Notes: generated by a model not told the origin, from the sequence alone. A DNA stretch of 64,000 nt from Vampirovibrio sp. (GCA_027448865.1 DAIDMR010000069.1:23931-87930), one strand, 5' to 3'. Counted from the stretch's first letter, positions 3,442 through 63,081 are shown. A program made the numbers and translations.

Positions 3442-3481
3442 ACATCGAAAACACGGAACCATAGAAAATCAGGAAAACCCT

Positions 3482-34420: not shown

Positions 34421-35601
34421 AAAAAACCGTATCAGTTCTGCTCATGTTTATCATCGCCACAAGCCTAACTGGCTGCCACAGTGGTTCTTCAGACTCCCAT
34501 AAAACACCTTCTCCCGCTGAAGTCAAAAACCCTGTACCAGAGAACCAGCTTACGACCATCACGCTAACCGCCCAAGCTGAAAAAAGGCTGGGGATTAAAA
34601 CCACAACGATACAGAGCCAAAACATTTCCAAGTCGCTCACCCAACACGGAGAAGTGCTGGCGATTCCTGGCTTTACAGTAGCCGTTACGGCTCCTTTTGC
34701 GGGAAAACTGACCGGAAACACGCTGGTTGCAGGTCGTACCGTCCATAAAGGACAAACAATTTTTAGTTTGGTTGCATTGCCTAATGACACGAGCGGCTTA
34801 GGGGCGCAACAGGAAGTCACTGTTCGCCAAAAACAATTGGATGCAGCCCAAGCCCAGGTGAACCGCTATCAGCAACTCGTTCAAGATCAGAGCGCCAGTC
34901 AAAGATTATTGCAGGAATCCCAAGTGGCGCTTCAAAACGCGCAGGCCGCTTTAAATGCGGCTCAATCACGGCAGCGTTTTTTAAATGGACATATTACCCA
35001 TTCAGACGCTCCCCAGCTTTCGGTCATGGGTATTAAAGCGCCATTAACCGGGATGGTTCAAAAGATTTATGTCACGCCCAATCAGATTGTCGCGGGGGGC
35101 ACACCCTTGTTTGAGGTCAGCAGCCTGAACCCGGTTTGGATCAGGGTGCCCGTTTATGCAGGTGATTTGTCAAGCGTCAGCAGTTCTCAAACCGCATTGG
35201 TACAGCCGTTGGGCGAAAATGCGGGCAGTGGTTCCAGAGTGGCCCGTTTCGTTCCGGGACCACCTACAGCGAATCCCCAAGCCATTTCAACCGATTTGTT
35301 CTATGAGTTATCCAATAGCGATAATGCCTTTCAAGTCGGTCAAAAAGTCAGTGTCACTTTAACCCAAAAGGGAAGCCAGTCCGGCCTGACGATTCCGTTT
35401 TCCGCTGTTGTCTATGATATTGACGGCGGAACTTGGATATACCGGCAGGCGGCACCACACACGTATGCCCGAAAACGTGTTTTGGTCAGCCGTGTTATGG
35501 GAGACAAAGCCATTCTGGCACACGGTATTGAGCCGGAATCAAAAATTGTCTACAGCGGTGCGGCTGAACTCTTCGGCACCGAGTTTGGAGTTGGAAAATG
35601 A
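34417..35601 (+). CDS. Heavy-metal efflux RND periplasmic adaptor (CusB/CzcB family), 394 aa
   Basis: It has the lipoprotein-type signal TGCHSGS and MFP barrel-sandwich/lipoyl/beta-barrel architecture. It lies between the OMF and the CzcA/CusA-like pump. Confidence 0.8.
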
Positions 35602-38600
35602 TCCGCTGGCTGATTCAAACCTCTCTGCAATTGCGGATTGCCGTCGTTGCAATCACGGTGATTCTCATGTTTTTGGGCAGCCGTACTTTGATGGAATCCA
35701 CCGCTTTTGACGTGTTCCCGGAGTTTGCGCCGCTACTGGTTGAAGTGCAGACGGAAGCACAAGGACTTTCCACCACGGACGTAGAATCACTGATTACAGT
35801 ACCGATTGAAAATGCGCTCAGCGGAGTTGCCAAGCTGGATAAGATCCGCTCCAAATCGGTTTTGGGGCTATCGTCCGTAGTTCTTTATTTCCAGAAAGAT
35901 GCGAACCTAACCCAAGTCCGTCAATTGGTTCAGGAGCGTTTGACCCATCTTTCTGCCACGTTGCCCGTTGCCGCCAAGCCGCCGGTCATCCTATCGCCGT
36001 TATCCTCCACCAGCCGAGTCTTGAAAATCGGTATCTCTTCCAAAACCATGTCTCAGGTAGACATGACCACGCTGGCAAAGTGGACAATCCGGCCCCGGTT
36101 GATGGCCGTTCCGGGCGTGGCGAACGTAGCGATTTGGGGACAACGGGACCGGCAGTTTCAAATTCAGATTGATCCGGAGCGATTGAGAACGCACGGTGTC
36201 AGCGTCGATCAAATCGTGAAAGCGAGCCAGGACGCCTTGAGAATTGAGGGAGGCGGGTTTATTGATACACCGAACCAACGGCTTTCCGTTTCCCACATGA
36301 TGAACCTGAAATCAGCCCAGGATTTGGCAAAAATCCCAGTCGGTCTCAACAACGGTGTTCCTCTGAACCTGGATCGAGTGGCAACACTGACAGAGGGGTT
36401 TCCCCCGCCGATTGGGGATGCGGTGGTGAATCACGGGCCGGGACTTTTGCTCATTGTGGAAAAGCAGCCGTGGGGCAATACCCTGGAAGTGACTCATAAG
36501 GTGGAAGAGGCCCTGGATTCGCTCCGCCCTGGTTTGAAAGGACTGGAAATTGATTCCTCCATTTTCAGACCCGCCACGTTTATTGAAATGTCCTTGCACA
36601 ACCTGAACCATGCCATGTTGCTGGGATGCCTGCTTGTCATTCTAGTGCTGGCCTTTTTCCTGAACAACTGGCGAACCGCGCTAATTAGCGTTTTGGCGAT
36701 TCCAACATCTTTGCTGGTTGCGGCGCTTGTTCTTCAGTATCAAGGCGGGACATTGAACACAATGGTATTGGCCGGGCTGATTATCGCGCTCGGCGAAGTG
36801 GTGGATGACGCCATTATTGACGTGGAAAACATCATGCGGCGTCTGAAGCTGAACAAGGTGAGCGAGAACCCACAATCTGCCTTCATGGTTGTTATGAATG
36901 CTTCTCTTGAAGTCCGGAGCGCCGTTGTTTATGGCAGCGTGATCGTGGCCCTGGTATTGCTTCCCGTCTTGATGCTGGAAGGGGTGTCAGGGTCCTTCTT
37001 CAGGCCATTGGCTTTGTCTTATATGACCGCCATCATTGCTTCCCTGTTTGTGGCGTTGACACTGACACCCGCCTTGGCATTGCTGTTGCTCCCGAAGTCG
37101 GCGGGCGAGCAAAAGGAACCGCCTTTAGTGAATTGGCTCAAGCCTCGTTATGAAAAACACTTAACCCGATTGCTGGATCGCAAAAAGCAGGTCACAGGCA
37201 TCATGACGGCTACCATCATGACGGGGCTTTTGGCCTTGCCTTTTCTGGGAGAGGAGTTTTTGCCCCACTTCAAGGAATACGATTTCCTGATGCACTGGGT
37301 TGAAAAGCCGGGAACATCCATTGATGCCATGCGACGGATTACGATCCAAGTCAGCGATGAGTTGTTGGCAATACCGGGTGTCCGCAATTTCGGGGCACAT
37401 ATCGGACGGGCGGAAGTGGCTGATGAAGTAGTCGGCCCCAACTTTACTGAATTGTGGGTGAGCCTGGACCCAAAGGTGCCGTATGAAGCCACCGTAGCCA
37501 AAATCCAGAATGTGATTGACGGCTATCCGGGGCTATATCGGGATGTATTGACCTACCTGCGGGAACGTATCAAAGAGGTTTTGACGGGTTCCAGTGCAAC
37601 GCTTGTTGTCAGAATTTACGGGGATAACCTGGATGTTCTTCGGGACAAAGCCCAAGAAGTCTATGCCGCGATGAAACCCGTTAAAGGCGTGGTGGATCTG
37701 AAGGTTCAGCCGCAAGTCATGGTACCGCAAGTCGAGGTGCATGTCCGAAACGAAGCGGCTTCCCAATTCGGCATCACCCCCGGCGATATCCGCCGAACCG
37801 CCGGTATTTTCCTCAAGGGGATCAAAGTCGGCGAGTTTCATGAAGACCAGAATTCATTCGATATTGTGGTGACGGGTACACCGTCCATGCGTCAAGATTT
37901 ATCGGCCTTGCGGCAAGTTCTAATCACGACGCCCACCGGGGAAACCGTTCCCCTGAGAGACGTGGCGGATGTCATCATTGCCCCAACGCCCAACTTGATT
38001 TCAAGGGAAATGGCTTCCCGTTATACCGAAGTAACGTGCAACGTCGCCGGGCGGGATCTGGGAGGCGTGGCCCGTGACATTGAACAAAAGCTCAAGTCCG
38101 TCCCATTCGATAAAGGATACCATCCGGAATTGTTGGGCGAATATGCCGCACAGCAGGCTTCCAAAGACCGGCTCATGCTCTTTTCCTTCATCTCCCTGAT
38201 TGGCATCATGATCATTCTGCATGCCGACTTCCGTTCAATTCGCTTAACGCTTTTGATTCTGCTCAGTCTCCCCTTTGCATTGTTTGGCGGGTTAGTCGGC
38301 GTGATTCTGACCGGAGGGGTTTTGTCCTTGGGATCATTGATCGGGTTTGTCACGGTTTTGGGCATTGCCGCCCGGAACAGCATCATGCTCATCAGCCACT
38401 ACCGGCATCTTCAGCTAGAAGAGGGAAAACCGTTTGATGCCGCCATGATTATTCAGGGGGCCAAGGAACGGCTTTCACCTATTTTGATGACCGCATTAGC
38501 CGCCATGCTGGCCCTGTTACCACTGGTTTTCGGTGGTGAGAAGCCGGGACAAGAAATCGAACACCCAATGGCAATCGTGATTGTTGGCGGCTTGATCAGT

Positions 38601-38678
38601 TCAACGATCTTGAACTTGTTTATCCTTCCGGTCATGTATAGCCTTTTCGGTCAGCCGGAAGCGTGTGAAGCTGCATGA
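35598..38678 (+). CDS. Heavy-metal efflux RND pump (HME family, CusA/CzcA-like), 1026 aa
   Basis: It has a 12-TM RND architecture. The TM4 segment [19 protein letters not shown] is HME-RND type and the length matches CusA/CzcA. An adjacent cusRS-like two-component system is present. Confidence 0.9.
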
Positions 38679-39835: not shown

Positions 39836-40765
39836 TTAATCCTGCCGAAGTAATATCGCTTCCAACCGCTCCAGTTGTTGGGCATGTTTTGCAGGAGCCT
39901 GAGTTATCAAGCGCTGAATGTTTTTAAGTTTCCATTGAACAGCGGGTAAATCCTTCAGAGCAGGGACTGGAACCAGTTCCCAATCGGGATTACCTTGCTT
40001 GAAACTGATCAGGAATTGTCGTTCCACTTCGCTGAGCCAGGCGGAAACTTCTTGGAACAGCCTTTCTCGGGTTGATAGATAATCTTCATAACTGAAAGGA
40101 ACCATGGTCATACCAGCAAACTGAGCATGATAAGCGGCTTCCTGGTCTTGATGTCTGGGACTGAGTATTTCATTAATGGGTCTCGGTGAACTGATGAGGC
40201 ATGTAATAAACCCAAGCCGTAGCTCGTCAGACAGCCCTTCATTCTCCAACAGGTAATAGATGTCAAAAAGGTCACGGGGATGTTGTCGATCTAGGGCGGC
40301 ACAGATCTTGCCACCAAACAGCTCGGCATGAGAAACCACGCTAATTGCAGCAAACTTGCCAAACTCCTCTTGAACCTTTTCGCTCACCTGCATAAGCCGA
40401 GATGGCACGATCGCTCCACGAAGAGTGGTATTAACTTCGATTTTAATTTGAGCAGATGGACTCTGGCAGGATAACTTCGCGTGTTGACCATCACTCTGTT
40501 GAACTGGTGTAACACGGACAGCAGGCAGGGTGCTTTCAATTCGGTTCTTGATCCGGCCCAGCGATTCAGTAATTTCCTCAAGTGCCTGCTGCCGGTTGTG
40601 AAAAGGAAGATAGGTTAAATCGATATCGACCGATAACCGTGGTAAATCTCGCACAAATAGATTAATGGCAGTGCCCCCTTTCAGGGCAAAGCACGCTTCG
40701 GTTGCCACATGCGGAAGAACCTGAAGTAGCAGCTCGACTTGTGCTCGGTATACCGCTGAAATCAT
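39836..40765 (-). CDS. AbiEii-like nucleotidyltransferase toxin (type IV TA / abortive infection), 309 aa
   Basis: It has the nucleotidyltransferase-fold motif GGTAINLFVRDLPRLSVDIDL (GSx9-13DxD pattern). It is located 4 bp-overlapped downstream of an AbiEi-like gene. Confidence 0.75.
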   Translation of the reverse strand: MISAVYRAQVELLLQVLPHVATEACFALKGGTAINLFVRDLPRLSVDIDLTYLPFHNRQQALEEITESLGRIKNRIESTLPAVRVTPVQQSDGQHAKLSCQSPSAQIKIEVNTTLRGAIVPSRLMQVSEKVQEEFGKFAAISVVSHAELFGGKICAALDRQHPRDLFDIYYLLENEGLSDELRLGFITCLISSPRPINEILSPRHQDQEAAYHAQFAGMTMVPFSYEDYLSTRERLFQEVSAWLSEVERQFLISFKQGNPDWELVPVPALKDLPAVQWKLKNIQRLITQAPAKHAQQLERLEAILLRQD

Positions 40766-41574
40766 AGCTCGGCCAGCTCCTTCGGGATGGTGATTTGGAA
40801 TTCAGCGTCAAAAACCCCACCTTTCACCAAACTGCGTTTCCCCTTGCCCAGATCAAGCTGCCCGAGGTTGATAAATTGCAACCACTGATGTCCAGCTTTT
40901 TGGGCCATGTAAAGAAAGAGTCGTTTAACCTTGATGGACGTGCAGTACTCCAGCATGTCTTGCAGCAGTTTGGGGCGTAGATTAACCATCCCTTCCATTA
41001 AGTGATAACACTCGACCAGATCCAGGTCATCCGGGGTCAAAAACAGACACTCCAGGATGGCGCGTTCAGGGGCCGATATCCATATATGAAAGGTCTTGCT
41101 TTCATACCTAATCAGGCCGATGTCCGGCGGGAGAAACGACGTTCTGACTGATCGAATGGAAGCCTTCAGGTCTGCCTTTTTGAACCACTGGGGAATATTG
41201 ACGTTTGTGGGGAGGAATAGAAATATCTCCTCTGTACCAGTTCGCAGATAATGGGATAGCCCTTGCATGGATAGGGCTGTAAGAGCACCCGCATGGATGG
41301 ACAAGCACGCCTGTGCCTGGAGGGCATAGAGCGCTCCCTGCCAGTGAAGTTCATCTGCAGGACGCTTGAAGGCTCCGGGGCCGACCGTCTCCAGCCAGCC
41401 GCTCTTTCGATAACGTTTTTGCAAATCTCTGGAGATGCCTAATTCCTCTAGCCAAGAGGCTAGGCAGACTGTGCCTGGTTTATGCTCGTTCAGGAATTGG
41501 TTTAATTTCTGTGATTTTTGGGTACTCATAGTACCAATATACTGGTTTTTATGAACCAACACAAGGCACTTCAT
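40762..41574 (-). CDS. AbiEi-like antitoxin/transcriptional autoregulator; alternative start at 41529 (MSTQ...)
   Basis: It is of AbiEi size and sits immediately upstream of the AbiEii-like nucleotidyltransferase. Two 15-bp palindromes GGTACTnATAGTACC lie at its 5' end, and one of them overlaps an internal ATG. Confidence 0.7.
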   Translation of the reverse strand: MKCLVLVHKNQYIGTMSTQKSQKLNQFLNEHKPGTVCLASWLEELGISRDLQKRYRKSGWLETVGPGAFKRPADELHWQGALYALQAQACLSIHAGALTALSMQGLSHYLRTGTEEIFLFLPTNVNIPQWFKKADLKASIRSVRTSFLPPDIGLIRYESKTFHIWISAPERAILECLFLTPDDLDLVECYHLMEGMVNLRPKLLQDMLEYCTSIKVKRLFLYMAQKAGHQWLQFINLGQLDLGKGKRSLVKGGVFDAEFQITIPKELAEL

Positions 41575-41816: not shown

Positions 41817-42833
41817 GTGGTTTTACAGTCAAGCGCATTGGGTTTCGCGCTTATTTTGAGGCATGTCATTTTGGCACAAGTCATATCTTCTGTGAGGGAA
41901 GAGCAGCATCAACGCTATCAGGCGCGGTTGCGGCAAGATATTCCCAGCTTTATTCAAGACTATATGAGCGATCCGGCCATTATCGAAATCATGGCCAATC
42001 CGGATGGCAGCGTTTGGGTGGATGACTTGCGCTCAGGCCAAAGGTCGGTAGGAACCATTGAAGCCTTTCAGACAGAATCCATTCTGAATGTCATTGCTTC
42101 TTTAAGCGGCACCGCGATTACCCAAGAAAATCCCATTCTGGAATGCGAATTGCCTTACGATGGCTCACGCTTTGCCGGGATGATCCCGCCCGTGGTGGAA
42201 AGGCCTATTTTTAGCATCCGGCGCAAGGCTGTCCAGATTTTTACGTTGGATGACTATGTGGCGGCTGGAATTTTGAGTTCCTCTCAAAAAGCTGTCATTG
42301 ATGCATGGATCAAAGCCAGGAAAAATATTTTGATTGTGGGCGGAACCTCCAGCGGCAAAACCACACTCATCAATGCCGTCATTCAGGCGATAACCGAGCA
42401 CAGCCCCAAACATCGCCTCATTTTGCTGGAAGATACGGTTGAACTTCAATCGACGGCTTCTAATATCGTGGCGATGCGAAGCAGCCGGGATGTTTCTTTG
42501 CAAGCATTGGTTAAAGCAACCTTACGCCATCGACCGGATCGCATCATTGTGGGTGAAGTTCGGGGTAAAGAGGCTTTTGATCTGTTAACGGCCTGGTCAA
42601 CCGGCCATCCCGGTGGTGTCGCGTCTTTGCATGCCAATAGCGCGGAAGGTGCGTTTTTAAGGCTGGAACAGCTTCTGGAACTTGCCACTCAATCCCCCAT
42701 GAAAACGCTCATTGGGGAAGCGGTGGATGCCATTGTCTATATTGAAAAGACTGGGAGTGGGCGCAAAGTGAAAGAGTTATTGACTGTTCAAGGCTACCGG
42801 AATGGCCAGTATCAGACTCAAACGGTTGTTTAA
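41817..42833 (+). CDS. trbB: Conjugal transfer ATPase TrbB (VirB11 family), 338 aa; true start may be internal
   Basis: It has the Walker A GGTSSGKTT and VirB11/PilT-class motifs (Asp box, and a His box near GHPGGVASLHANS). It is the first gene of the trb operon. Confidence 0.85.
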   Translation: MVLQSSALGFALILRHVILAQVISSVREEQHQRYQARLRQDIPSFIQDYMSDPAIIEIMANPDGSVWVDDLRSGQRSVGTIEAFQTESILNVIASLSGTAITQENPILECELPYDGSRFAGMIPPVVERPIFSIRRKAVQIFTLDDYVAAGILSSSQKAVIDAWIKARKNILIVGGTSSGKTTLINAVIQAITEHSPKHRLILLEDTVELQSTASNIVAMRSSRDVSLQALVKATLRHRPDRIIVGEVRGKEAFDLLTAWSTGHPGGVASLHANSAEGAFLRLEQLLELATQSPMKTLIGEAVDAIVYIEKTGSGRKVKELLTVQGYRNGQYQTQTVV

Positions 42834-52364: not shown

Positions 52365-52556
52365 ATGAACATTCATCAACCGAATCAACCTGTAATCAGT
52401 CGTGATATGACAGATTTTGGGGTTCCCGGCGTGGTAATTGAGGTGGATCCGATTGAAGCTGAAGCCTGGGGATCCTTTGAGGAAACCGCCATTACCGAAC
52501 AAGACGCCATTGACTCAGAAATAGATGTTGAATTGGATGTGGAGGCTGCCCAATGA
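52365..52556 (+). CDS. Small highly acidic protein (63 aa) translationally coupled to the ArdC-primase gene
   Basis: It has a plausible RBS (aggaggaaaaaataATG), a C-terminal half that is almost pure D/E (EAEAWGSFEETAITEQDAIDSEIDVELDVEAAQ), and a stop that overlaps the downstream start (ATGA). Confidence 0.4.
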   Translation: MNIHQPNQPVISRDMTDFGVPGVVIEVDPIEAEAWGSFEETAITEQDAIDSEIDVELDVEAAQ

Positions 52557-54757
52557 GCGATTACGCCAAAACCGTGTCTGAATCTATCATTAGGCAACTA
52601 CAAGAGGGAACCGCCCCATGGCTACGACCCTGGCAAACTGGAGAACGTTATCTTCCGTTTAACCCAACCACGGGCAATGCATATAAGGGCATTAACGCCA
52701 TTTGGTTGCTCTCTATTACGGAAGCCAGAGGCTATGGGGATACCCGCTGGATGACCTATAAGCAAGCGAGCAGTCTGGACGCTCAAGTGAACAAAGGCGA
52801 AAAAGGAACCATGATCCAGTTCTGGAAGTGGCACGATGAAATTCTGAAGCGGGATGATGAAGGCAAGCCAGTTTTGGATGAAAATGGTAATCCAGCCAAA
52901 GTTTTGATACGCCTACAATGCCCTAAAGTTCGTACTGCAATCGTCTTTAATGCCCAGCAAATCAACGGTTTACCGGCTATTGAAAACAAAGCCCTCCTCA
53001 CTGAGTGGGAGCGCCACCTGGAAGCCGAAGCCATCTTGAAGGATTCCCAAGCCAGGATTGAGCACGTACCAGGAAACCGGGCCTTTTACCGGCCATCCAG
53101 CGATAGCATTACACTGCCACTCAGAGAGCAATTTCCTACGGCAGATAATTATTATGCAACCGCTCTGCATGAATTGGGCCATTGGACCGGGCATGAGTCC
53201 AGGCTGAATCGTGACATCAAGCATCCGTTTGGTTCGGAGGCTTATGCCAAAGAAGAATTGCGGGCGGAAATCGCGTCCCTGATGCTGGGTGAAAAACTCA
53301 GTATCGGGCACGATCCAGGGCAGCATGTTGCCTATATTGGATCCTGGATCAAGGCGTTAGAGGAAGACCCGCGAGAAATTTTCAGGGCGTCAGCCGATGC
53401 TGAAAAAATCACCCAGTATCTTCTGGGCCGTGAAATGCAAAAGGTCCAGAGCCAAGACATTGAAGAACAGGCAAAAATTCAAGTGCCTGTATTAAAAATT
53501 CAGGAGGAGAGTGCATTGAGAACTACGCCTGAGCGGGTCTATTTGGATGTCCCCTATGCCGAAAAAGAGGCAGTCAAGAAACTAGGAGCCAAGTGGGACC
53601 GACAGGAGAAATCCTGGTATGTTCCGGCAGGCATTGCGTTAGAACCCTTGAAACAATGGTTAAAGAGTCAAAATACGGTTTCCAAGGATCCACAGGCCGA
53701 GTTTGCCTCAGCACTGCAAGAGGCAGGCTTACAGTTGAAAGGCTTACCCATTATGGATGGAAAGCTGCATCGAGTCCCTGTAGAAGGTGATAAGCACGGT
53801 CAAAAGAATGGCGGGTATGTTGGCTTTATGGACGGGCATCCTGCAGGCTACATCAACAACTACAAAACAGGTCTGGAAACCACTTGGAAATCAGAACAGC
53901 CGGTGAATCGTTTAAGTGACAGTGAGCGCTTGCGTCTGGAGCAAGAAGCTACGCAACGGCAATTGAAACGGGCACAGGAAAGAGAGGAGCTTCAAACTCA
54001 AACTGCGGATTTGGTGGCCGATTGCTGGCTGAACGCTGCCCCCGCGCAAAATCACCCGTATTTGGACCGAAAAAGTGTTCAAGCCCATGGCTTAAGAGTC
54101 AATACCTGTGGCTCGGTGGAAATTGGTCATGCTCAGCCTGATGAGCCCGCCCAGCAATGGAGTGGTCATGGAGAATTGCTCATCCCCATTGTCGACATCA
54201 ATGGCCGCTTCTGGGGTGCCCAATCCATTGATGATCAAGGGCGTAAGAGTTTCCCTCGGGGTGGCCGGATTCAGGGCGGGCACCACGTGTTAGGGCATAT
54301 CCAAGAGGGGCAGCCCATTTTAATTGCAGAAGGGTACGCCACTGCCGCGACGGTGCATGAATCTTCGGGACTGCCGGTTGTGGTGGCGTTTAATTCTGGA
54401 AACGTGCCGGTTGTCGCGCAAGCGTTTCGAGACAAGCACCCAGCCAGCACATTGGTAATTGCCGGGGATAACGATCACAGCAAACCAATTGAGAAGAATG
54501 TCGGACTCCAGAAAGCCCAAGAGGCCGCTCAAAAGGTGGATGGTCATCTGCTACTGCCTGAATTTGAAAAAGGCTCAACAGGAACAGACTGGAATGATTT
54601 GGCTCAGGAAAAGGGAAAAGATGCAGTTCGGCTTCAGTTGCAAGTAGGTATATCGCTCATCAAGGCGCAAGCCAAGCCGTTCATACAACAAGTCTCATCC
54701 GCTCTTGAGGCGAAAGTCAATCTCACTCCCACGAAGCCTCAGGCCTTGACGCGATGA
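52553..54757 (+). CDS. ArdC-like antirestriction/ssDNA-binding N-domain plus zincin-like metallopeptidase plus C-terminal TOPRIM primase domain (TraC-like), 734 aa
   Basis: It has an ArdC N-terminal domain and the HExxH metallopeptidase motif ALHELGHWTGH. The C-terminal region has Toprim-like acidic motifs (LIAEGYATAATV..., VIAGDNDH). The fusion architecture is common on conjugative elements. Confidence 0.75.
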   Translation: MSDYAKTVSESIIRQLQEGTAPWLRPWQTGERYLPFNPTTGNAYKGINAIWLLSITEARGYGDTRWMTYKQASSLDAQVNKGEKGTMIQFWKWHDEILKRDDEGKPVLDENGNPAKVLIRLQCPKVRTAIVFNAQQINGLPAIENKALLTEWERHLEAEAILKDSQARIEHVPGNRAFYRPSSDSITLPLREQFPTADNYYATALHELGHWTGHESRLNRDIKHPFGSEAYAKEELRAEIASLMLGEKLSIGHDPGQHVAYIGSWIKALEEDPREIFRASADAEKITQYLLGREMQKVQSQDIEEQAKIQVPVLKIQEESALRTTPERVYLDVPYAEKEAVKKLGAKWDRQEKSWYVPAGIALEPLKQWLKSQNTVSKDPQAEFASALQEAGLQLKGLPIMDGKLHRVPVEGDKHGQKNGGYVGFMDGHPAGYINNYKTGLETTWKSEQPVNRLSDSERLRLEQEATQRQLKRAQEREELQTQTADLVADCWLNAAPAQNHPYLDRKSVQAHGLRVNTCGSVEIGHAQPDEPAQQWSGHGELLIPIVDINGRFWGAQSIDDQGRKSFPRGGRIQGGHHVLGHIQEGQPILIAEGYATAATVHESSGLPVVVAFNSGNVPVVAQAFRDKHPASTLVIAGDNDHSKPIEKNVGLQKAQEAAQKVDGHLLLPEFEKGSTGTDWNDLAQEKGKDAVRLQLQVGISLIKAQAKPFIQQVSSALEAKVNLTPTKPQALTR

Positions 54758-54983
54758 TGTTGACTGACGCTCACCTAATTTTTTCGTCTCTCAATTCCAT
54801 CTCTCTTAATCTTCTTGGTTCACAATCAGGACATGATGAATGGATATATCCGGTGTATAAGCATTCGGGTTTACTTTTTGATTTCAGTTGAATTAATTGG
54901 TAGAAGGCTTTCTAATCTGCTTTGCGCAGATCTGGAAAAAGTCCTATGCATCAAATAAACTCTGCTGTAAAATGCCTTAATCG

Positions 54984-56111
54984 TTGATTAGACCAGAGAG
55001 GCTTCGAGTGGCTGGGGAAATTAGAAATAGCCAAGATGCTTTTACGTTCCAGGATATACCCGAGCCAAACAGTGTTATTGCTACCGCTGCAAAGATTCAA
55101 TTTGGGAAGCCCATCCCTCCTCAGCAGCAGGTCTTCCTATATAGCGCTGATGAATGGGAGTATTTCATCGAAGAGTGGGTGCATAGCCAGAAACAAAATT
55201 ATACAAAGGTTCGTCGATATGCTGGCGCTAATGACATGGGCATTGACGTTGCTGGATTTGTTGATGATACTGGTCTCCAAAGTGATTGGGACAATTTTCA
55301 ATGTAAGCACTATGATGGTGCACTAGCCCCCAGTACAGCAGCGGCTGAGGTGGCAAAAATTCTTTGGCATTCATTTCAAGGTAAATATATACCCCCACGC
55401 GCTTACTATTTTATAGCTCCTAAAGGTTGCGGGACTAGTCTCTCCAGGCTTTTAGACAACCCATCAAACTTGAAGAAGCATATTATAGAGAAGTGGGATA
55501 AGCAGTGTGCAAAGGCAATCACTGCAACACGAGTGATCCTTCTTGAAGAATCCTTTCTTGCCTATATAAACAATTTTGATTTCTCAATATTTAAGGCTCG
55601 CACTTTATTGGAGATTATCGATGACCATCGCAAGACTCCCTATTATGCTAATAGATTTGGAGGTGGATTGCCCGATAGGCCCATAGTGAAACGGCCTCCT
55701 GAGAATCTGGCAGATGGAGAAAGTCGTTATATTGAGCAACTTTTTGAAGCCTATAGCGATCATACAAAAAGTGAAGTCACACACCTGGAAAGTTTGAGGA
55801 GCGATCTGATTGATCATTATCATCGGCAACGAGAAACGTTTTATCACGCCGAAGCCCTGCGGAATTTCTCACGAGATACTGTTCCACCTGGCACGTTTGA
55901 GCAACTACAAGATGAGGTTCATGCCGGAGTGATTGACATTGAGGGACTTTTACACGCCGATGGGTATGCTCGTTTAAATGAAATCCTCAAGTCAGCCACG
56001 CAGCTTCAAATGACCTCAAATGCCCTGATGAGTGTTGTGAAAATCCAGGATAGAAAAGGAATCTGTCATCAGCTCTCTAACGAAGACCGTTTGCGCTGGA
56101 GGAAGCCATGA
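54984..56111 (+). CDS. Putative effector of a Lamassu/ABC-3C-like defence cassette: N-terminal PD-(D/E)xK-like nuclease motifs plus C-terminal helical domain, 375 aa (TTG start; GTG at 55008 is an alternative)
   Basis: It has the E-D-QxK pattern (DEWEYFIEEW ... GIDVAGFVDD ... DNFQCKHY) with restriction-endonuclease-fold spacing. Its stop overlaps the next gene by 4 bp, and its GC is lower than the flanking trb/tra genes. Confidence 0.5.
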   Translation: MIRPERLRVAGEIRNSQDAFTFQDIPEPNSVIATAAKIQFGKPIPPQQQVFLYSADEWEYFIEEWVHSQKQNYTKVRRYAGANDMGIDVAGFVDDTGLQSDWDNFQCKHYDGALAPSTAAAEVAKILWHSFQGKYIPPRAYYFIAPKGCGTSLSRLLDNPSNLKKHIIEKWDKQCAKAITATRVILLEESFLAYINNFDFSIFKARTLLEIIDDHRKTPYYANRFGGGLPDRPIVKRPPENLADGESRYIEQLFEAYSDHTKSEVTHLESLRSDLIDHYHRQRETFYHAEALRNFSRDTVPPGTFEQLQDEVHAGVIDIEGLLHADGYARLNEILKSATQLQMTSNALMSVVKIQDRKGICHQLSNEDRLRWRKP

Positions 56112-56602
56112 AAGCTGCAAATCATTTGAGCCCTTTCAATGGACCACTAGAGGCTGGGATTCGAGCACTGGGCATTCTCCTTCCCGCATTTCCTCGTTCT
56201 TTTGACTTGCAACGTCTGGTAGCACTTGACCACTTGGTTGTGCATACCGGAGATGTAGGAGGACCAGAGAGCCTTCACCCTCCACTTCCTCTTCGCTCTG
56301 CGGAGCTGACTATCCGTCGCTCTGTAGTCGAGCGAGGCATTCTGCTTATGGTGAATCGAGGATTAATTGAACGAGTTATGGATGATACGGGGCTAAGCTA
56401 TCGTGCTGGAGATTTAGCACAAACATTCATGTCAACTCTATCTGCCGATTATCTCATTGCCCTTCAAGAGCGTGGTGAATGGGTAGTTTCCACTTTTGCA
56501 GATCTGGATGATGATCAACTTCGCCAAACCATAGGTGATCTGTTTGGACGCTGGATTGAGGAGTTTCAGGCAACACAGCGCAGCATGGCATTAGGAGTAT
56601 AA
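56108..56602 (+). CDS. Small helical middle component (LmuC / ABC-3C MC-like), 164 aa
   Basis: It is translationally coupled on both sides (ATGA overlap upstream, 4-bp gap downstream). Its size and helical character match ABC-3C middle components. Confidence 0.45.
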   Translation: MKAANHLSPFNGPLEAGIRALGILLPAFPRSFDLQRLVALDHLVVHTGDVGGPESLHPPLPLRSAELTIRRSVVERGILLMVNRGLIERVMDDTGLSYRAGDLAQTFMSTLSADYLIALQERGEWVVSTFADLDDDQLRQTIGDLFGRWIEEFQATQRSMALGV

Positions 56603-56606
56603 CAAT

Positions 56607-58451
56607 ATGCCAACTCGTTTAATACTTCGTCATCTCTGCTTTACAGGACCGGATCAACCACCAGCGATTCTTACATTTGAGCGTGGTCTAAACGTACTTT
56701 ATGGGGCATCAGATACTGGAAAGTCTTTTGTTCTAGAAGCTATTGACTTTATGTTGGGTGGTAAAAAACCCCTTAGAGACATAAAAGAACGGATTGGATA
56801 CGATAAGGTATTTCTTGGCATAGAGACGACGGATGGTTCTATATTTACACTGTATAGAAGTACAAGTGGTGGAAGCTTTTATCTGTTTGAAGGATTGCAT
56901 CAATCATTTCCCCAAGATGTAGAAGCTCTCTCGCTTGCACCGCAGCATAAGAAAGGTAAAGATGATAGTCTGTCTAGCTTCCTGCTAGAAATAGTGGGAC
57001 TTAACGGCAAAAAAATCAGGAAGAATAATAAAGGCATAAACCAACAATTTACCTTCCGTAACCTTGCAAGGTTTTGTGTTGTTGCAGAAGGAGCTATTCA
57101 AGACCAACGCTCTCCTATTGAAAGTGGACAAGCCATTTCAGAAACCGCAGAATATTCAGCATTTAAGCTTCTGCTGACTGGCCTTGATGATAGTGCGATC
57201 ATTCCTGCACAGAAAAATTCTACCCTTTCACAATCTCAAGCAGGCAAACTTGAGATCCTTGATGAAATTCTTTCCAATCTCAAAGAGAAATTTTCTGGTG
57301 CCCTACCTGCCGCTGAGGAACTAGATGAAGCCTTGGCAAAACATGAGTCTATGATTGCTATTGAGTTCCAAAATCTTCAATCATCGGAGAGTGAATACCA
57401 GATACTTGTTTCCCGTAGGGATTCGTTACGCTTTAAGCTTCAAAATGGAGTCGAGCGTCGCGGCGAAATTCAAGACTTGCATACCAGATTTGCTCTGCTT
57501 GATCAACACTACCAATCCGACCTTTCAAGATTGGCTAGTATCCGAGAAGCCGGTTCTCTTATGGCTGTATTGCCAGAGCATACATGCTCGCTTTGTGGTG
57601 CTGAACCTAAGGATCAGCACAAAAAATCTGACTGCGATGGCAATATAGAAGCTGTAGTTTCTGCCTCTGATGCAGAGAGTGCTAAGATACTATTGCTTCG
57701 TAGGGAGCTTAACGATACCATTGCCCAACTAAAACAAGAAGCTGACGGTTTTGACCATTTAATACCAAATCTTCGAGGCGAACTAGCGACGATTGAAGAG
57801 CAGATTAAGCCTTTAAGACCTGCTTTAATAGAGCGTCGGATATACTATGCCAATCTAGTTGATGGAAGGGCAGCTATCCGTAATGAGCTTGCACTGTATG
57901 ACCAGTTAGTAGAACTTCAGACTCGTCGCAGTAAAATCCAAGTTCTACTTGAAGCAGAGGGGAATACGTCTCAACCAACTACTGATTTTCCAATATCAGT
58001 TCTAGATGAATTTGCTCAACAGATAGAGCGAGTGCTCAAAGCATGGCATTTACCCGGAGCCGAACGAGTACAATTCAACGAGACAGACCGTGACCTTATT
58101 ATTGATGGCAGTAGACGAGGAAGCCATGGCAAAGGCATGCGTTCCATTACCCATGCTGCGTTTACAATTGGACTTTTAGAATATTGTAAAAGCAAGAATC
58201 TACCCCACCCTGGCTTCATAGTGCTGGATTCCCCTCTGCTTGCATATCGCCAGCCTGAGGGGGATGAGGATGATCTTCGGGGTACTGATGTGCAAGATCG
58301 ATTCTATGAATATTTAGCACAATGGGAAGATGCTCAAGTGCTAATTATTGAAAACGTTACCCCTCCTGATGCAGTTCAGAAATCACCAACAACCCAAATT
58401 TTCACTGGAAACCATAATTTAGGTCGTTATGGATTTTTTCCAGATCTCTAA
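56607..58451 (+). CDS. SMC/ABC-type ATPase with long coiled-coil and CxxC hook-like apex (LmuB / ABC-3C ATPase-like), 614 aa
   Basis: It has an N-terminal Walker A (LNVLYGASDTGKSFVLEAIDFMLGG) and a C-terminal Walker B-like motif (GFIVLDSPLLAY). About 270 aa of heptad-rich sequence lie between them, with CSLCGAEPKDQHKKSDC at the midpoint. This is Rad50/SMC-like head-coil-hook-coil-head topology. Confidence 0.65.
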   Translation: MPTRLILRHLCFTGPDQPPAILTFERGLNVLYGASDTGKSFVLEAIDFMLGGKKPLRDIKERIGYDKVFLGIETTDGSIFTLYRSTSGGSFYLFEGLHQSFPQDVEALSLAPQHKKGKDDSLSSFLLEIVGLNGKKIRKNNKGINQQFTFRNLARFCVVAEGAIQDQRSPIESGQAISETAEYSAFKLLLTGLDDSAIIPAQKNSTLSQSQAGKLEILDEILSNLKEKFSGALPAAEELDEALAKHESMIAIEFQNLQSSESEYQILVSRRDSLRFKLQNGVERRGEIQDLHTRFALLDQHYQSDLSRLASIREAGSLMAVLPEHTCSLCGAEPKDQHKKSDCDGNIEAVVSASDAESAKILLLRRELNDTIAQLKQEADGFDHLIPNLRGELATIEEQIKPLRPALIERRIYYANLVDGRAAIRNELALYDQLVELQTRRSKIQVLLEAEGNTSQPTTDFPISVLDEFAQQIERVLKAWHLPGAERVQFNETDRDLIIDGSRRGSHGKGMRSITHAAFTIGLLEYCKSKNLPHPGFIVLDSPLLAYRQPEGDEDDLRGTDVQDRFYEYLAQWEDAQVLIIENVTPPDAVQKSPTTQIFTGNHNLGRYGFFPDL

Positions 58452-58509
58452 TTGAACCTCTGTCACATTGTGCCAAAATTAAATTTATATCATTTTAAAT
58501 TTAATTTAC

Positions 58510-58541
58510 ATGCCCTACCTGAGGGCATCTTTGCATCTTTT
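58510..58541 (+). terminator. Rho-independent terminator-like hairpin after the defence cassette
   Basis: The hairpin is ATGCCCT-acctg-AGGGCAT (7-bp stem), followed by the T-rich CTTTGCATCTTTT. Confidence 0.5.
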
Positions 58542-58661
58542 ACCAACGACTTCTAGCAGAAGTAATCACAGGAAACATAGATCCCTATTTAAAATTCTAG
58601 CAAACTAGATACACAAGAAATGACTTCGTTTCTTTCTTCCCATGACTGGTAGGGCTAAAAT

Positions 58662-59270
58662 CTATGAGGGTAATTTCCAGGCTAAATAGCCAATACACTT
58701 TATTTGTTGAAGTGAGATAGGCCCAAAATAACGGCTGTCCAGGCTATTTCTATGGTAAGGCGAAATCAGCCAAACTTCCCCTTGTTTCACCCGATAGTCA
58801 CCGGGATTGAGTTGGGGCAAAGGTAAGCTAGTCCGGCCAAAGCTCTGTGATTGGCTTTTAGGGAGCCACTTCCCATTGATGGCTATACCTTGAGGTGTTA
58901 TTGAAACGATATCGTTTGAAACGGCTGCCACGGGCTTCATAAGATGGCTATAACCACCAGGACAATCGCCATCGGGAATGTAACCTCGTTGCTTGGCGAT
59001 TCGAAAGAAAGGTTTATCTGGCGGGCAAAGCCAGACAAACTGTCCCCTCCGAATAGGGCCATGAATAGGTTCCACCTTCCAAATGCCTGGCGGAACGGAG
59101 GGCGTGGTAATAATTCGGTAGCCTTGAGCATAAAATAGCCCTAGAAAGCTCCCAATGAGGGCAACCGCAATAAAATATCGAATTAACAGCAACTTCATCG
59201 GGCTTGTATTGGCGGTTGTTGGATCCGCTCCAATACCACAGGCTGGACCCGATGTTTGGTAGCAGGGCAT
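58662..59270 (-). CDS. traF: Conjugative transfer signal peptidase TraF (S26 family); likely start at 59198 (MKLLLIRYF...)
   Basis: It has an N-terminal TM, an S26-type catalytic region, and the TraF-specific C-terminal motif (…GDYRVKQGEVWLISPYHRNSLDSRYFGPI…). It is directly downstream of traG. Confidence 0.8.
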   Translation of the reverse strand: MPCYQTSGPACGIGADPTTANTSPMKLLLIRYFIAVALIGSFLGLFYAQGYRIITTPSVPPGIWKVEPIHGPIRRGQFVWLCPPDKPFFRIAKQRGYIPDGDCPGGYSHLMKPVAAVSNDIVSITPQGIAINGKWLPKSQSQSFGRTSLPLPQLNPGDYRVKQGEVWLISPYHRNSLDSRYFGPISLQQIKCIGYLAWKLPS

Positions 59271-61156
59271 GTGGAACTTTCACTTGAAGACGCCAAACCG
59301 CCCGCATGTTTAAGCCGGATTTGCTTGGCATCCAAGATTTTATCTGACTGTTTGGGTGGACCAATTTTGGCGGCTTCCTTAAACCAGGGATCCCGGAAAT
59401 ATAGGATTTGGGTTCCTTTGATGGGGGCATGGCCCGCTGCAAAAATCAGCATTTCTCCTGGGTTTTGGATGTTTCCCAGTCGGTCTTTTCGTGGGGCTTT
59501 TAACCGCATTACCTCATCCGGGGTCATTAGGGGACGCCCTAGGGAGTGAAACGAACGGCTGACTTGCCCTAACATCCCGCTAGAGCGTTTCCCAGAGCTA
59601 GTGTAATCCTCCTTGACCACGGTGGCCTGTCCCAGTAATTTAGATAACCATTCTGCCGTCAGCACGTTATTGGGCGCGTATGCCACTCGGATGTGACAGT
59701 TAGCCAGAATGCTTTCGTTTTGGCCGTATGCGGCCTGAAGTTGGGCGATATCCTGCATGATGAGATAGGCTTTCATTCCATAACCAGCAATGAACGCCAG
59801 AGCCTCTTGAAAGATTTCCAGACGGCCAAAAGTCGGGAACTCATCCAACATTAATAGTAGGCGCTGTTCATAGGATTTGGCAGGCTGGCCGCCTTCAAAC
59901 TTTTGCTCATCACGAGTTAAAACTCGGACAATCTGGTTCAGAATTAGGCGCATTAAAGGTTTCAGCCGGTCTTTATCTGCCGGGCGCACAACCAGATAAA
60001 GTGAAACCGCGTGTTTTTGATGCATCAGGTCATGAATGGAAAAGTCACTGCGGCTAATGTTTCGGGCCACCAACGGATCCCGGTAAATGGTTAAAAAGGC
60101 CTGGGCAGAGGAAAGCACCGAGCCCCGTTCCTGCTCTGGCCGGTTTAGCATATCCTGGCCCGCTGCCGCTACCACTTGCCGAGCCGTTTGGCTGCTGTGC
60201 TGGTTTTCAACCATTTCTTGATACAGCGCATCAATGGGCCGTGTCGGATCCGAGATGGCATAGGCCACCTCTGATAAACTGGCTTTTTTATCAGTCTTGT
60301 AAATCAGATGCAAAATGAGACCGGTTAAAAACGCATGCGCGGTCTTGGCCCAGTGATCCACCAGGCCTTTTCCATCAGGGTCGACAATAATATTGGCCAG
60401 GTTTTGCACATCCCCCACTTCCGTCACGCCTAGGCGTACCTCATCCAGAGGGTTAAAAGCGCAACTGCCTCTTTCAGACGCCGGATCAAACTTCAGAACG
60501 GTACCATTCAGCTCATGTTTTCGGTAACCCGCCGTTAAATTCCAGAGTTCTGCCTTCATATCATTGACCACCACCGAATGCGGCCATGTCAGTAAGGTGG
60601 GAACGACCAGGCCCACACCCTTTCCAGACCGTGTGGGCGCAATGGCTGCAATATGCTCAGGTCCATTGTGCCGTAGGTAATGAAGTCGTTTCTTCTGATC
60701 CATCCAGCCGCCTACATACACCCCGGCGCTGGAGTCATGGGAATTGGGCAATAGGCCGGTGTCTTCAATTTCTTCTTGGGCGGCAAAATGGGCGGTGCCA
60801 TGTACGTCCTGGTGTCCTTGGGGATTTCGTGCCCGTACATTCAACAGGGTCGAGTATGAAAAAATGGTTATTCCCAGCGTTAAAAGCAGGAAAACGTTGA
60901 CCACTGAAAACGTTTGAGGACCATTGTCGGCAAACTGAGCCTGCCAAACTAGCCAATTCCAGGGCGCGTAAAAATGATCAAACCAAGGATTTCCCAGCGC
61001 TAGCTCATAGTGAAAACGCTCGGCCACAAACTGAGTGGCCATTATGCTGGCCAGAAGTAGGACAAAAGCAATGACAGTAAAATCCAGTGACGTCTGAGTT
61101 CTTGTGGCTGCTTTGGTCATCGCCCTCGTCCTTTCGCTTGCCCTTGGCGCTGCCAT
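59195..61156 (-). CDS. traG: Type IV coupling protein TraG (VirD4 family), 653 aa
   Basis: It has two N-terminal TMs and the Walker A APTRSGKGVGLVVPTLL. Size and context follow the relaxase gene. Confidence 0.9.
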   Translation of the reverse strand: MAAPRASERTRAMTKAATRTQTSLDFTVIAFVLLLASIMATQFVAERFHYELALGNPWFDHFYAPWNWLVWQAQFADNGPQTFSVVNVFLLLTLGITIFSYSTLLNVRARNPQGHQDVHGTAHFAAQEEIEDTGLLPNSHDSSAGVYVGGWMDQKKRLHYLRHNGPEHIAAIAPTRSGKGVGLVVPTLLTWPHSVVVNDMKAELWNLTAGYRKHELNGTVLKFDPASERGSCAFNPLDEVRLGVTEVGDVQNLANIIVDPDGKGLVDHWAKTAHAFLTGLILHLIYKTDKKASLSEVAYAISDPTRPIDALYQEMVENQHSSQTARQVVAAAGQDMLNRPEQERGSVLSSAQAFLTIYRDPLVARNISRSDFSIHDLMHQKHAVSLYLVVRPADKDRLKPLMRLILNQIVRVLTRDEQKFEGGQPAKSYEQRLLLMLDEFPTFGRLEIFQEALAFIAGYGMKAYLIMQDIAQLQAAYGQNESILANCHIRVAYAPNNVLTAEWLSKLLGQATVVKEDYTSSGKRSSGMLGQVSRSFHSLGRPLMTPDEVMRLKAPRKDRLGNIQNPGEMLIFAAGHAPIKGTQILYFRDPWFKEAAKIGPPKQSDKILDAKQIRLKHAGGLASSSESSTCPATKHRVQPVVLERIQQPPIQAR

Positions 61157-63081
61157 TGCCCTTTTTCATCCAGTTGAATCGTTTGCCCCACTGAAAGGCT
61201 TCTGAAGTCTTGTAATCGTTGAACAGGTTTCACCAGCATGGCTGCCTGGGTTTCTAGAAGGACTGCTTCAGAGCCATCCGTTAGAGTGCGCCGTCCTTGA
61301 TAAATCACGGTACCTTTATCTTGAGCGGTCCACGCCCGATGGGGTTTTAGGTTCTGGACGCGTTCCCGCACCAGGTTACGCTCGGTGATGTACGCTTGCA
61401 GTGCTGGCGATATTGAGCCATCTGCAAACAAAGAGGACTGCTTCGCTTGTTCTATTAGCTGCTGCCGCTCTTGTTCCAGTGCTTCATCCTTGAAAGTCAC
61501 TGCCATCTGATGTTGAGCGGCCAACTGAACAAGGTGCCGTTTGAAATCCGAGCTGCCTTGTACATCCAGTGGCTGATTCTGGAAGCGTTCAGCGGCCATT
61601 GTCAAAGCCAAAAGTATTGATCCGACGGTTACGGTGCCTACCGATACCAACTGCTTTTCATCGGTCACAGAACCACCATCCTGAACTTGGTAGACCAAAT
61701 CCCCGTTTTTTCGAATATAGGGCTTCAAGTCCTGGTAGATGAGATGCTTGGCTTGAGTCAGGTCATCCGCCGTTAATAGGGCTTTTTCAAAGTTTGCTTG
61801 CCTGGTTTTGCGCTGGCGCAGTAGCTCAAGTGCCTTACTATTCCCCTGCTCCGCCTGCTGAATCAGGAACTGCTCCCAAGTTAGTACGGGATGCTTGGCT
61901 TTTGATGCCTGCTTTTGGTGTTTTATCGATTGACTATGTGTTTGCAAGGCTGATTGTCGAGCTTGGGCCAATTGCTGGTAAGCTAGTCGTTTAGCTTGCC
62001 TACTTTGGCTGGATTGCTTAATTTTTAGGCGCTCTTGAGCATGCCAAGTTTTTAATTGCTGGGCAAATAGTGCTTTTTCCTCTGTTATTCTTTCTTTGAG
62101 CTGGCTTTTGACCAACCAGGCCGCTTGTTTTTGGGATTGAAAGTCAGAATGAAGTGCTTGGGTCGCCTCATCTGTTTGTTTAAGACTTTTTTGGTAAGCC
62201 CTCTTTGGATTTTCCAGCGCTGGATCGGGAGATTGAGAGTTTACAGGTGGTTCATATGGGCCGAAACGCTCCGTCAATGCCTTGAACGACAGGCTTTTAT
62301 CCACGGAACTGGCTTTGACACCCATGGAACCATCGCCAAGGGCAATCACCAGTCCGGCCCCACGGGGTTTTATCATTAAGCCATACTCAGCCATTGCCTG
62401 GTGTAGCCCGTCCCAACTTTTGCCCTCTTTGACAGCCTGAAGCAGGTCTGGTTTGGCCTCCGCCTGTATCCAGCCTAGCAAGGTTTGTTCACCAATATGA
62501 GCCTCAAGGGCATGGGCTTTTCCATACCGTTGCCCCTGCCCCATCCCGTTATCAACCGTCAAGCCGTGTTTATGCTCCAGGGCTCGGCAGGCCTTATCCC
62601 GAATATAGTAATCCCGATAAGGTTCATGGAGTTTAAAAGTCGCTGGATGCACCTTATTGATGGCCAAATGCAGATGAATATTATCTGTATCCTGGTGTAC
62701 CGCACTAATTCGCTGGTGTTCTCCAAAGCCTAATGCGTCGCACATTTGGTCTTCAATGTCTTCCAGTTGCGCTCGGGAAGGCTGCTCGCCTTCCGGGAAT
62801 GAAATCACACAATGATAGGTCTTATCCGCTTGAGAGCGCGTATTCTGGGACTGGGTGACCAGCACTTCTGCGATGGCCATTGCCGGAATTTCAGCCTCGC
62901 AATTGGAAAGTCGGTACCAAAGCACCTTCTCCCCTTCGGTTTCCGCTTTTAGATCCACCACGTATTCTGCGGTTCGGGTCCAAAGTATGGTCGAGGCATC
63001 ATTCTTGGCCTCCAGCACATACCGGCCCAGTCGGTCAAAATCCGAGGTTTTCAGTTTCCGATCAATGCGCTTGGAAATCAT
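61117..63081 (-). CDS. traI: MobP-family relaxase TraI (RP4 TraI-like), 654 aa
   Basis: It has relaxase motif III HQDTDNIHLHLAINKV (compare RP4 HTDTDNLHIHIAINKI) and the N-terminal motif I region with a candidate catalytic Tyr. The C-terminal region is Q/K-rich. Confidence 0.9.
   Translation of the reverse strand: MISKRIDRKLKTSDFDRLGRYVLEAKNDASTILWTRTAEYVVDLKAETEGEKVLWYRLSNCEAEIPAMAIAEVLVTQSQNTRSQADKTYHCVISFPEGEQPSRAQLEDIEDQMCDALGFGEHQRISAVHQDTDNIHLHLAINKVHPATFKLHEPYRDYYIRDKACRALEHKHGLTVDNGMGQGQRYGKAHALEAHIGEQTLLGWIQAEAKPDLLQAVKEGKSWDGLHQAMAEYGLMIKPRGAGLVIALGDGSMGVKASSVDKSLSFKALTERFGPYEPPVNSQSPDPALENPKRAYQKSLKQTDEATQALHSDFQSQKQAAWLVKSQLKERITEEKALFAQQLKTWHAQERLKIKQSSQSRQAKRLAYQQLAQARQSALQTHSQSIKHQKQASKAKHPVLTWEQFLIQQAEQGNSKALELLRQRKTRQANFEKALLTADDLTQAKHLIYQDLKPYIRKNGDLVYQVQDGGSVTDEKQLVSVGTVTVGSILLALTMAAERFQNQPLDVQGSSDFKRHLVQLAAQHQMAVTFKDEALEQERQQLIEQAKQSSLFADGSISPALQAYITERNLVRERVQNLKPHRAWTAQDKGTVIYQGRRTLTDGSEAVLLETQAAMLVKPVQRLQDFRSLSVGQTIQLDEKGQWQRQGQAKGRGR

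Follow-up and report, generated by a model that had tools for sequence, protein, structure and literature searches.

Three co-directional, tightly coupled genes separate traF from the ArdC-primase gene in a conjugative element on a 64,000-nt stretch of Vampirovibrio sp. DNA (GCA_027448865.1, DAIDMR010000069.1:23931-87930; the whole stretch is called the window), and the locus raises the question of what these genes encode and whether they belong to the transfer machinery or are carried by it. At a probability of roughly 0.85, they are read as an intact short type II Lamassu/ABC-3C system of the Mrr-nuclease subtype (lmuA-lmuC-lmuB), sitting as exchangeable cargo in the primase/traF slot of a P-type conjugative element. 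The Lamassu identity follows from full-length PADLOC matches, the Pfam domains CTD6 and MC2, fold matches to solved LmuA and LmuB, and intact motifs. A Lamassu/ABC-3C cassette of LmuA, LmuC and an SMC-like LmuB had been proposed in the original prediction, which was made from the sequence alone, and PADLOC and Pfam hidden Markov models (HMMs), structure prediction and comparative genomics bore this out. The system is of a known kind, one that the names in PADLOC, Pfam and RefSeq already cover.

Identity of the three proteins

The three open reading frames (ORFs) are all on the + strand (54984-56111, 375 aa, followed by frames of 164 and 614 aa; Table 1). The arrangement is exactly as predicted, with the lmuA stop and the lmuC start sharing ATGA (56108-56111) and a 4-nt spacer, CAAT (56603-56606), between lmuC and lmuB. 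Shine-Dalgarno sequences precede lmuC (GGAGGA) and lmuB (AGGAG). The 375-aa frame predicted for the first protein exists from TTG 54984, but the in-frame GTG 55008, with GAGAGG upstream (54997-55002), is the likelier start because P0001, the database gene call for the identical protein, has 367 aa and the N-termini of homologues begin there. The 8-codon difference does not affect the other results, and LmuA residues are numbered on the 367-aa protein.

LmuB has the size and motifs of the short Lamassu class, which is described as having an LmuB of ~600 aa, a Walker B of the form hhhhD[Q/S/T/E] and 0-2 copies of CxxC (bioRxiv 10.1101/2025.04.02.646746), and its Walker A has the form Gx4GK[S/T]. 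The predicted split Walker A and Walker B-like motif are intact and conserved, G33, S35, G38, K39 and S40 in the former and L540 and D541 in the latter being invariant across 25 homologues. Pfam gave only AAA_23 and SMC_N matches, both sub-threshold; a profile built from the 25 homologues matched Salmonella LmuB (9hqu_A) by sequence at 5.9e-13. The AlphaFold2 model (predicted local distance difference test score of 82.9) has head segments at 1-195 and 488-614, arms at 207-321 and 347-450, and an apical loop at 322-346. A comparison of this model with Rad50/SMC and with LmuB/DdmC had been proposed, and in Foldseek the LmuB chains ranked 1-5 (6e-18 to 2e-14), with V. cholerae 9uxh_F (6e-18), Salmonella 9hqu_A (2e-17) and 9nyg_B at the top, followed by YydD, Rad50, SMC and JetC. 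The fold is thus that of a head, an antiparallel coiled coil and an apex, with solved LmuB as its nearest match. The predicted head-coil-hook topology holds for the arms and the Cys loop at the apex, but the coiled coil is ~245 aa and not ~270 aa. In the loop, between long helices, all 25 homologues have C327 and C330, and conservation of C343 reaches at least 90%; the CxxC, which is probably a zinc hook, falls on the CPMC of Salmonella LmuB in an alignment. The LmuB of V. cholerae differs in having no zinc hook. LmuC, encoded between lmuA and lmuB, is the ABC-3C middle component.

LmuA has an N-terminal effector domain and an ABC-3C C-terminal domain, and its PADLOC match is full-length (6e-127). 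The best PDB matches of its AlphaFold model were solved LmuA structures; no significant sequence match to the PDB was obtained with the single LmuA sequence, with its family profile, or with LmuC, so LmuA is tied to the solved structures via fold comparison only. Among 46 relatives of 32-45% identity, the N-domain residues E51, D76, D80, Q98, K100, E114 and K117 are invariant, and in the model E51 lies in helix 1, D80 in strand 2 and Q98-x-K100 in strand 3. The E...D...QxK constellation had been predicted as EEW, GIDVAGF and FQCKHY. The motifs GIDVAGF (D80) and FQCKHY (Q98, K100) are invariant in these relatives; the helix-1 glutamate is instead E51 (ADEWE), and EEW is kept in close relatives only. 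The C-terminal CTD6 presumably docks on LmuB and LmuC and drives oligomerisation, as judged from solved Salmonella and Vibrio LmuA (bioRxiv 10.1101/2025.03.14.643221).

The effector type was assigned through relatives. In a Pfam scan of the 46 relatives, Mrr_cat was matched by 28 (best 1.1e-5) and Mrr_cat_2 by four, and Cap4/DUF4297, the effector of Cap4-type (DdmABC-like) Lamassu, was found neither in the LmuA of the window nor in any of the 46. When LmuA was aligned using hhalign to a bona fide Mrr_cat_2 domain from a related element (L005, below), the E, GxD and QCK motifs were in register. A search of 1.84 billion representatives with the N-domain profile gave 903 matches, and the 150 matches listed were all LmuA-like; since non-Lamassu Mrr proteins were not reached among them, the Mrr link is drawn from the Pfam scans of diverse members. 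The matches in relatives and the in-register motifs place the LmuA effector as a predicted divergent Mrr-type restriction-endonuclease domain and the cassette in Lamassu-Mrr.

Table 1. Coordinates of the cassette, its predicted functional elements and the slot (positions in the window)
Feature	Position	Strand	Evidence or remark
lmuA, effector, 367 aa from GTG (375 aa from TTG 54984)	55008-56111	+	
LmuA N-terminal Mrr-type PD-(D/E)xK nuclease domain (predicted)	55008-55658	+	
LmuA candidate catalytic residues	E51 55158-55160, D76 55233-55235, D80 55245-55247, Q98 55299-55301, K100 55305-55307	+	
LmuA C-terminal helical domain, ABC-3C CTD6	55719-56099	+	Pfam PF20282, 9.8e-44, residues 238-364 of 367 aa
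lmuC, middle component MC2, 164 aa	56108-56602	+	Pfam PF20288, 4.7e-45; PADLOC PDLC03871, 1.6e-53
lmuB, SMC/Rad50-like ABC ATPase, 614 aa, short-Lamassu class	56607-58451	+	PADLOC PDLC03863, 2.7e-181, residues 5-612
LmuB Walker A GASDTGKS, residues 33-40	56703-56726 (K39 56721-56723)	+	Invariant residues in 25 homologues
LmuB apical Cys motif CSLC-x12-C (C327, C330, C343), putative zinc hook	57585-57635	+	
LmuB Walker B FIVLD-S, residues 537-542	58215-58232	+	Invariant residues in 25 homologues
Variable cargo slot with Lamassu cassette and non-coding DNA either side	54759-58711		Ends of flank homology, GC
Upstream non-coding region, presumed lmuA promoter and ribosome-binding site	54759-55007	+	93% identical to L002
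Terminator-like hairpin ATGCCCT-ACCTG-AGGGCAT then CTTTGCATCTTTT, weak	58510-58541	+	Fold of 58452-58560

The cassette as cargo of a conjugative element

Upstream of the cassette lie the P-type type IV secretion system (T4SS) genes for TrbE/VirB4, TrbL, CagX/TrbG and TrbI and an ArdC-N/zincin/Toprim primase fusion, and downstream, converging on the cassette, are the genes for a TraF-like S26 peptidase, the TraG coupling protein and a MobA/VirD2-type relaxase. When species-representative genomes were scanned with TraG, four relatives emerged, namely a Candidatus Melainabacteria metagenome-assembled genome with a 96% identical TraG (L003), two from Vampirovibrio chlorellavorus (L004 and L005) and one from Vampirovibrio sp. 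(L006). The backbone of the window and these relatives fit the described conjugative plasmids of V. chlorellavorus, which carry T4SS operons and efflux transporters and have ~51% GC (PMC4451040).

The window is collinear with both L003 and L004 on either side of the slot. Homology ends at 54758/54759, just after the primase stop codon, and restarts at 58712, inside the last codons of traF. Neither has Lamassu genes in the slot, which in L003 (11619-15430) holds a HipA toxin kinase and unknown ORFs of 420 and 155 aa and in L004 (12445-15615) a 4HBT thioesterase and HipA. The suggestion that the cassette is self-contained cargo thus stands, as these elements share the flanks to the nucleotide but hold HipA modules in its place. 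The right boundary of the slot falls inside traF (58662-58711, - strand), where the last ~17 TraF codons vary among relatives; the 202-aa traF ORF overlaps traG, and a 178-aa call in L002 (below) suggests that the true start is ATG 59198. Beyond traF, L005 (12502-21113) carries a 1331-aa Mrr_cat_2-TPR-PIN protein, HipA and an AAA_14/DUF4143 ATPase, and L006 (12416-21583) a Cu-type P-ATPase, MerR and an RND efflux pump (metal resistance). In the Vampirovibrio-type elements L003-L006, a cargo hotspot lies downstream of traF.

Composition sets the slot apart, as had been noted for its AT-richness. The GC content of the slot is 0.430 against 0.497 for the flanking trb and 0.504 for the flanking tra backbone, which makes it the lowest-GC 3.95-kb stretch of the window, and the GC content at third codon positions (GC3) is 0.31-0.39 in the cassette against 0.44-0.53 in the backbone.

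The same backbone with the same Lamassu cassette in the same slot was found on a 38-kb Logan contig (L002), which is collinear with the window over 17.4 kb at 83.5% identity. Nucleotide identity is ~90% in the cassette and ~80% in the backbone, and LmuC is 93% identical between the two. The synonymous divergence (dS) between the cassettes (window 55008-58451, L002 8402-11845) is 0.33 for lmuA, 0.19 for lmuC and 0.30 for lmuB, against 0.58-1.08 for nine backbone genes. The higher similarity of the cassette is not due to constraint alone, because its dS is about one-third of that of the backbone, and the lower dS indicates that the cassette was shared among these plasmid lineages after their backbones had diverged. 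The ratio of nonsynonymous to synonymous divergence (dN/dS) is 0.16-0.17 for the three genes (0.16 for lmuC), which argues that the cassette is under purifying selection. Alternative-frame or antisense ORFs (55036-55326, 55605-55847, 57355-57648 and 58016-58219) lie inside these conserved genes. Taken together, the lower dS, the GC and GC3 contrast and the sister slots holding HipA give solid support to the status of the cassette as exchangeable cargo.

Neither a transposase or integrase nor a conserved terminal repeat is found at the slot. An inverted repeat of 17 nt around the cassette (54928-54944 and 58431-58447, 16/17 bases) was considered as a pair of terminal repeats and rejected since its complementarity is lost in L002; ~0.03 such repeats are expected by chance, and this one is probably a chance occurrence. 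In the upstream non-coding region, a 47-nt stretch is perfectly kept in L002 and includes both a -10-like TAAAAT (54968-54973) and the GAGAGG ribosome-binding site; from this conservation and the -10-like element we infer a lmuA promoter within the region. Of the predicted hairpin terminator, a 7-bp stem (58510-58528) followed by an interrupted T-run was found, and the surrounding region folds better than its shuffles (z = -3.1), but the consensus-based promoter/terminator scan made no call and the stem is degraded in L002. That scan found nothing above the shuffled background, with neither a lmuA promoter nor a 3' hairpin called, and an Rfam scan of 54500-59000 returned chance-level matches only.

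Homologues are widespread. The LmuA family has >2,400 matches in a 90%-clustered protein collection, and the 903 N-domain representatives were counted at 50% clustering. Using tblastn, LmuA matched 147 PLSDB plasmids at ~47-51% identity over >94% of its length (76 predicted conjugative, 47 from E. coli), annotated as 'ABC-three component system protein'; megablast with 52500-61200 as the query matched no PLSDB plasmid. The subfamily is present in 148 of 5,426 complete E. coli genomes, among them Nissle 1917, ATCC 25922 and E2348/69, and 58 of 70 near-identical E. coli copies are on plasmids. The E. coli IncF plasmid pLP50-1-101kb has the same three genes (366/161/608 aa against 367/164/614 aa in the window). 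Lamassu-Mrr cassettes of this kind, including those of E. coli that RefSeq names 'ABC-three component system protein / middle component 2 / AAA family ATPase', have the A-C-B order, protein sizes and CTD6 and MC2 domains in common with the cassette of the window, which differs from the E. coli examples in its lineage (Melainabacteria/Vampirovibrio backbones) and in its siting in a defined P-type Tra slot. The three-gene A-C-B order also occurs in L001, L002, L007, L011 and L013, and metagenomic homologues, all A-C-B, adjoin toxin-antitoxin pairs and restriction-modification systems of type I or a type III-like kind. Outside this backbone, the closest metagenomic LmuA relative (L001, 74% identity) has a type III-like restriction-modification system and the gene for a T4SS coupling protein as neighbours; its lmuB (11583-13428) is split into 150-aa and 398-aa calls, through either decay of the copy or an assembly error.

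Mechanism and competing readings

A working model was taken from solved Cap4-type systems (bioRxiv 10.1101/2025.03.14.643221, 10.1101/2025.06.23.660979 and 10.1101/2025.04.02.646746). Two LmuB subunits, joined at the coiled-coil apex (here probably by the CxxC zinc hook), and one LmuC would sequester the C-terminal helical domain of monomeric LmuA and so keep LmuA inactive. An invading phage or plasmid would be sensed by the LmuB heads and LmuC through its DNA ends or replication intermediates, and ATP turnover at the Walker A/B site of LmuB would then release LmuA; in vivo, LmuB of the solved Cap4-type systems is enriched at phage replication origins, as reported among the same precedents. 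Freed LmuA would oligomerise through its C-terminal domain (to a tetramer in Cap4-type systems), so pairing the Mrr-type nuclease domains into active sites, and the active enzyme would cut DNA indiscriminately, with the infection aborted or the foreign replicon eliminated. Activation of the Mrr-type domain in the same way as the Cap4-type is plausible, since restriction-fold nucleases usually must pair to cut duplex DNA. Lamassu-Mrr has been shown to defend E. coli against phage (Millman et al. 2022, 10.1101/2022.05.11.491447). The cassette is accessory to the element and would probably benefit the host, and hence the plasmid, against phages and competing plasmids.

Several points weigh against this reading. 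The defence role of this particular cassette is a prediction, and sequestration, release and tetramerisation are extrapolated from Cap4-type to Mrr-type effectors. The solved complexes, i.e., Salmonella enterica LmuACB (9hqu, 9hqx and 9hr5) and Vibrio cholerae DdmABC/LmuACB (9uxh, 9nxx, 9ny5 and 9nyg), are all Cap4-type, with a Cap4/DUF4297 effector where the window has an Mrr-type one, and are only 8-16% identical to the proteins of the window. The LmuA of the window is itself below threshold for Pfam Mrr_cat (14.4 bits against a 21-bit cut-off, E = 0.043), and the hhalign match to the L005 Mrr_cat_2 domain is weak (E = 0.02). The promoter and terminator of the cassette are putative. A link to the tested E. 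coli SE15 Lamassu-Mrr was not established, as pECSF1 and the chromosomal site of other B2 strains were found without the subfamily.

The sub-threshold Mrr_cat score, with no NCBIfam model matching LmuA and no PDB sequence match, could be taken to mean that the effector is an undescribed nuclease subtype and the cassette a new Lamassu variant, much as the original prediction suggested in calling the N-domain possibly a distinct subtype. This is very unlikely, as over half of the relatives match Mrr_cat and Mrr is an effector class of Lamassu that has already been described (Millman et al. 2022, bioRxiv 10.1101/2022.05.11.491447; 2025 survey, bioRxiv 10.1101/2025.04.02.646746); that part of the prediction is replaced by a divergent Mrr-type domain. 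Decay of the cassette into a non-functional remnant, for which the scan without a clear promoter or terminator might speak, is hardly credible given three ORFs that are full-length against the HMMs, intact catalytic and ATPase motifs, and a dN/dS of ~0.16 at a dS of ~0.3 against L002; L001, with its split lmuB, shows what decay looks like. A conjugation accessory, i.e., an SbcCD/Rad50-like complex that processes the transferred strand, would suit the location between the primase and traF genes and the likeness of LmuB to Rad50/SbcC, the more so as Lamassu has been proposed to derive from SbcCD. The cassette and SbcCD/Mre11-Rad50 have in common an ABC ATPase head, an antiparallel coiled coil, an apical CxxC and, as predicted for the cassette, DNA-end recognition coupled to a nuclease; however, the LmuB arms are far shorter, the nuclease is a distinct protein with a restriction fold that would be held at the coiled coil, and the proposed role is immune and not repair. 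Pfam found no Mre11/SbcD-type metallophosphoesterase domain in the cassette, the NCBIfam Rad50 and RecN matches of LmuB cover the P-loop only and are far below cut-offs, the L003 and L004 backbones are intact and collinear without the cassette, its composition is foreign to the backbone with an approximately three-fold lower dS, and homologues are also found in settings that are not conjugative, next to restriction-modification and toxin-antitoxin genes, so that a role in transfer is highly improbable. Wadjet JetABCD, Gabija GajA and PARIS AriA have the ABC/SMC-type ATPase fold in common with LmuB (JetC and AriA in Foldseek), but their PADLOC similarity is limited to the P-loop (~30-60 residues, E from 1.8e-5 for AriA to >1e-4), and the JetA/B/D, GajB and AriB partners are absent from the cassette.

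What the machine was selected for is a separate matter. A plasmid-centred role, in which the same Lamassu-Mrr complex serves chiefly to eliminate or exclude competing plasmids (DdmABC-like) or acts in addiction and stability, with phage protection secondary, is possible but less likely than not. It would suit the HipA toxin kinases in the identical slot of sister elements, the AbiE toxin-antitoxin/abortive-infection pair beside trbB (below), the plasmid records of the LmuA subfamily (147, of which 76 conjugative) and the plasmid-borne majority of the near-identical E. coli copies, the anti-plasmid action of DdmABC, the type II Lamassu of V. cholerae (cited in 10.1101/2022.05.11.491447), and the low dS of a cassette that travels between related plasmids. 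Homologues are, however, equally common on chromosomes beside restriction-modification systems, Lamassu has no known antitoxin-like unstable component, and Lamassu-Mrr has been validated as anti-phage; the two roles are compatible and not mutually exclusive. A narrower and more doubtful version holds that the primase/traF junction of Vampirovibrio-type plasmids is a dedicated exchange slot in which co-circulating plasmids swap modules for abortive infection and addiction (Lamassu-Mrr, HipA and Mrr-TPR-PIN), with the Lamassu copy mainly a plasmid-versus-plasmid weapon or stabiliser; that copy may have to tolerate the conjugative DNA ends of its own element, and the setting may be a predatory lineage whose T4SS is proposed to inject DNA into algal prey.

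Neighbouring modules and significance

Other modules were found elsewhere in the window. An AbiEi/AbiEii pair (type IV toxin-antitoxin/abortive infection; 39836-41574, - strand; PADLOC 6e-86 and 2.8e-123, Pfam AbiEii 1.5e-38) immediately precedes the gene for a trbB-like ATPase (41817-42833) on its upstream side and is a second defence/addiction module on the element. A HipA-like toxin kinase (29415-30662, + strand, Pfam HipA_C 4e-46) differs from the HipA proteins in or beside the slot of L003, L004 and L005. At 148-4969, 11742-14405 and 32855-38678, the window encodes a P-type cation ATPase and two RND efflux sets, whose AcrB-family pumps have 1097 and 1026 aa and are accompanied by outer-membrane factors; this agrees with the V. 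chlorellavorus plasmid bearing several efflux transporters (PMC4451040). A 603-aa ankyrin-repeat protein (24318-26129, - strand) matches the PADLOC candidate PDC-M72A (1.4e-32), probably through its repeats, and the adjoining 725-aa ORF (26273-28450, - strand) has no Pfam or PADLOC match.

Returning to the Lamassu-Mrr cassette, the additions to what is known are modestly interesting and consist of the host lineage, a delimited slot with alternative toxin and defence contents, and recent exchange of the cassette. The locus adds an intact Lamassu-Mrr example from a little-studied lineage, its backbone relatives being non-photosynthetic predatory Melainabacteria (Vampirovibrio), and gives precise mutational targets for a biochemical model of the Mrr-type effector, a type without a solved structure. 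It can be used for annotation and for studies of how plasmid-borne defence travels; knowledge of Lamassu itself is unchanged. For the plasmids of this lineage, it sets exact boundaries on a cargo slot of the P-type backbone in which defence modules and toxin modules take each other's place, and the ~3-fold lower dS of the cassette points to a module that moves between related plasmids.

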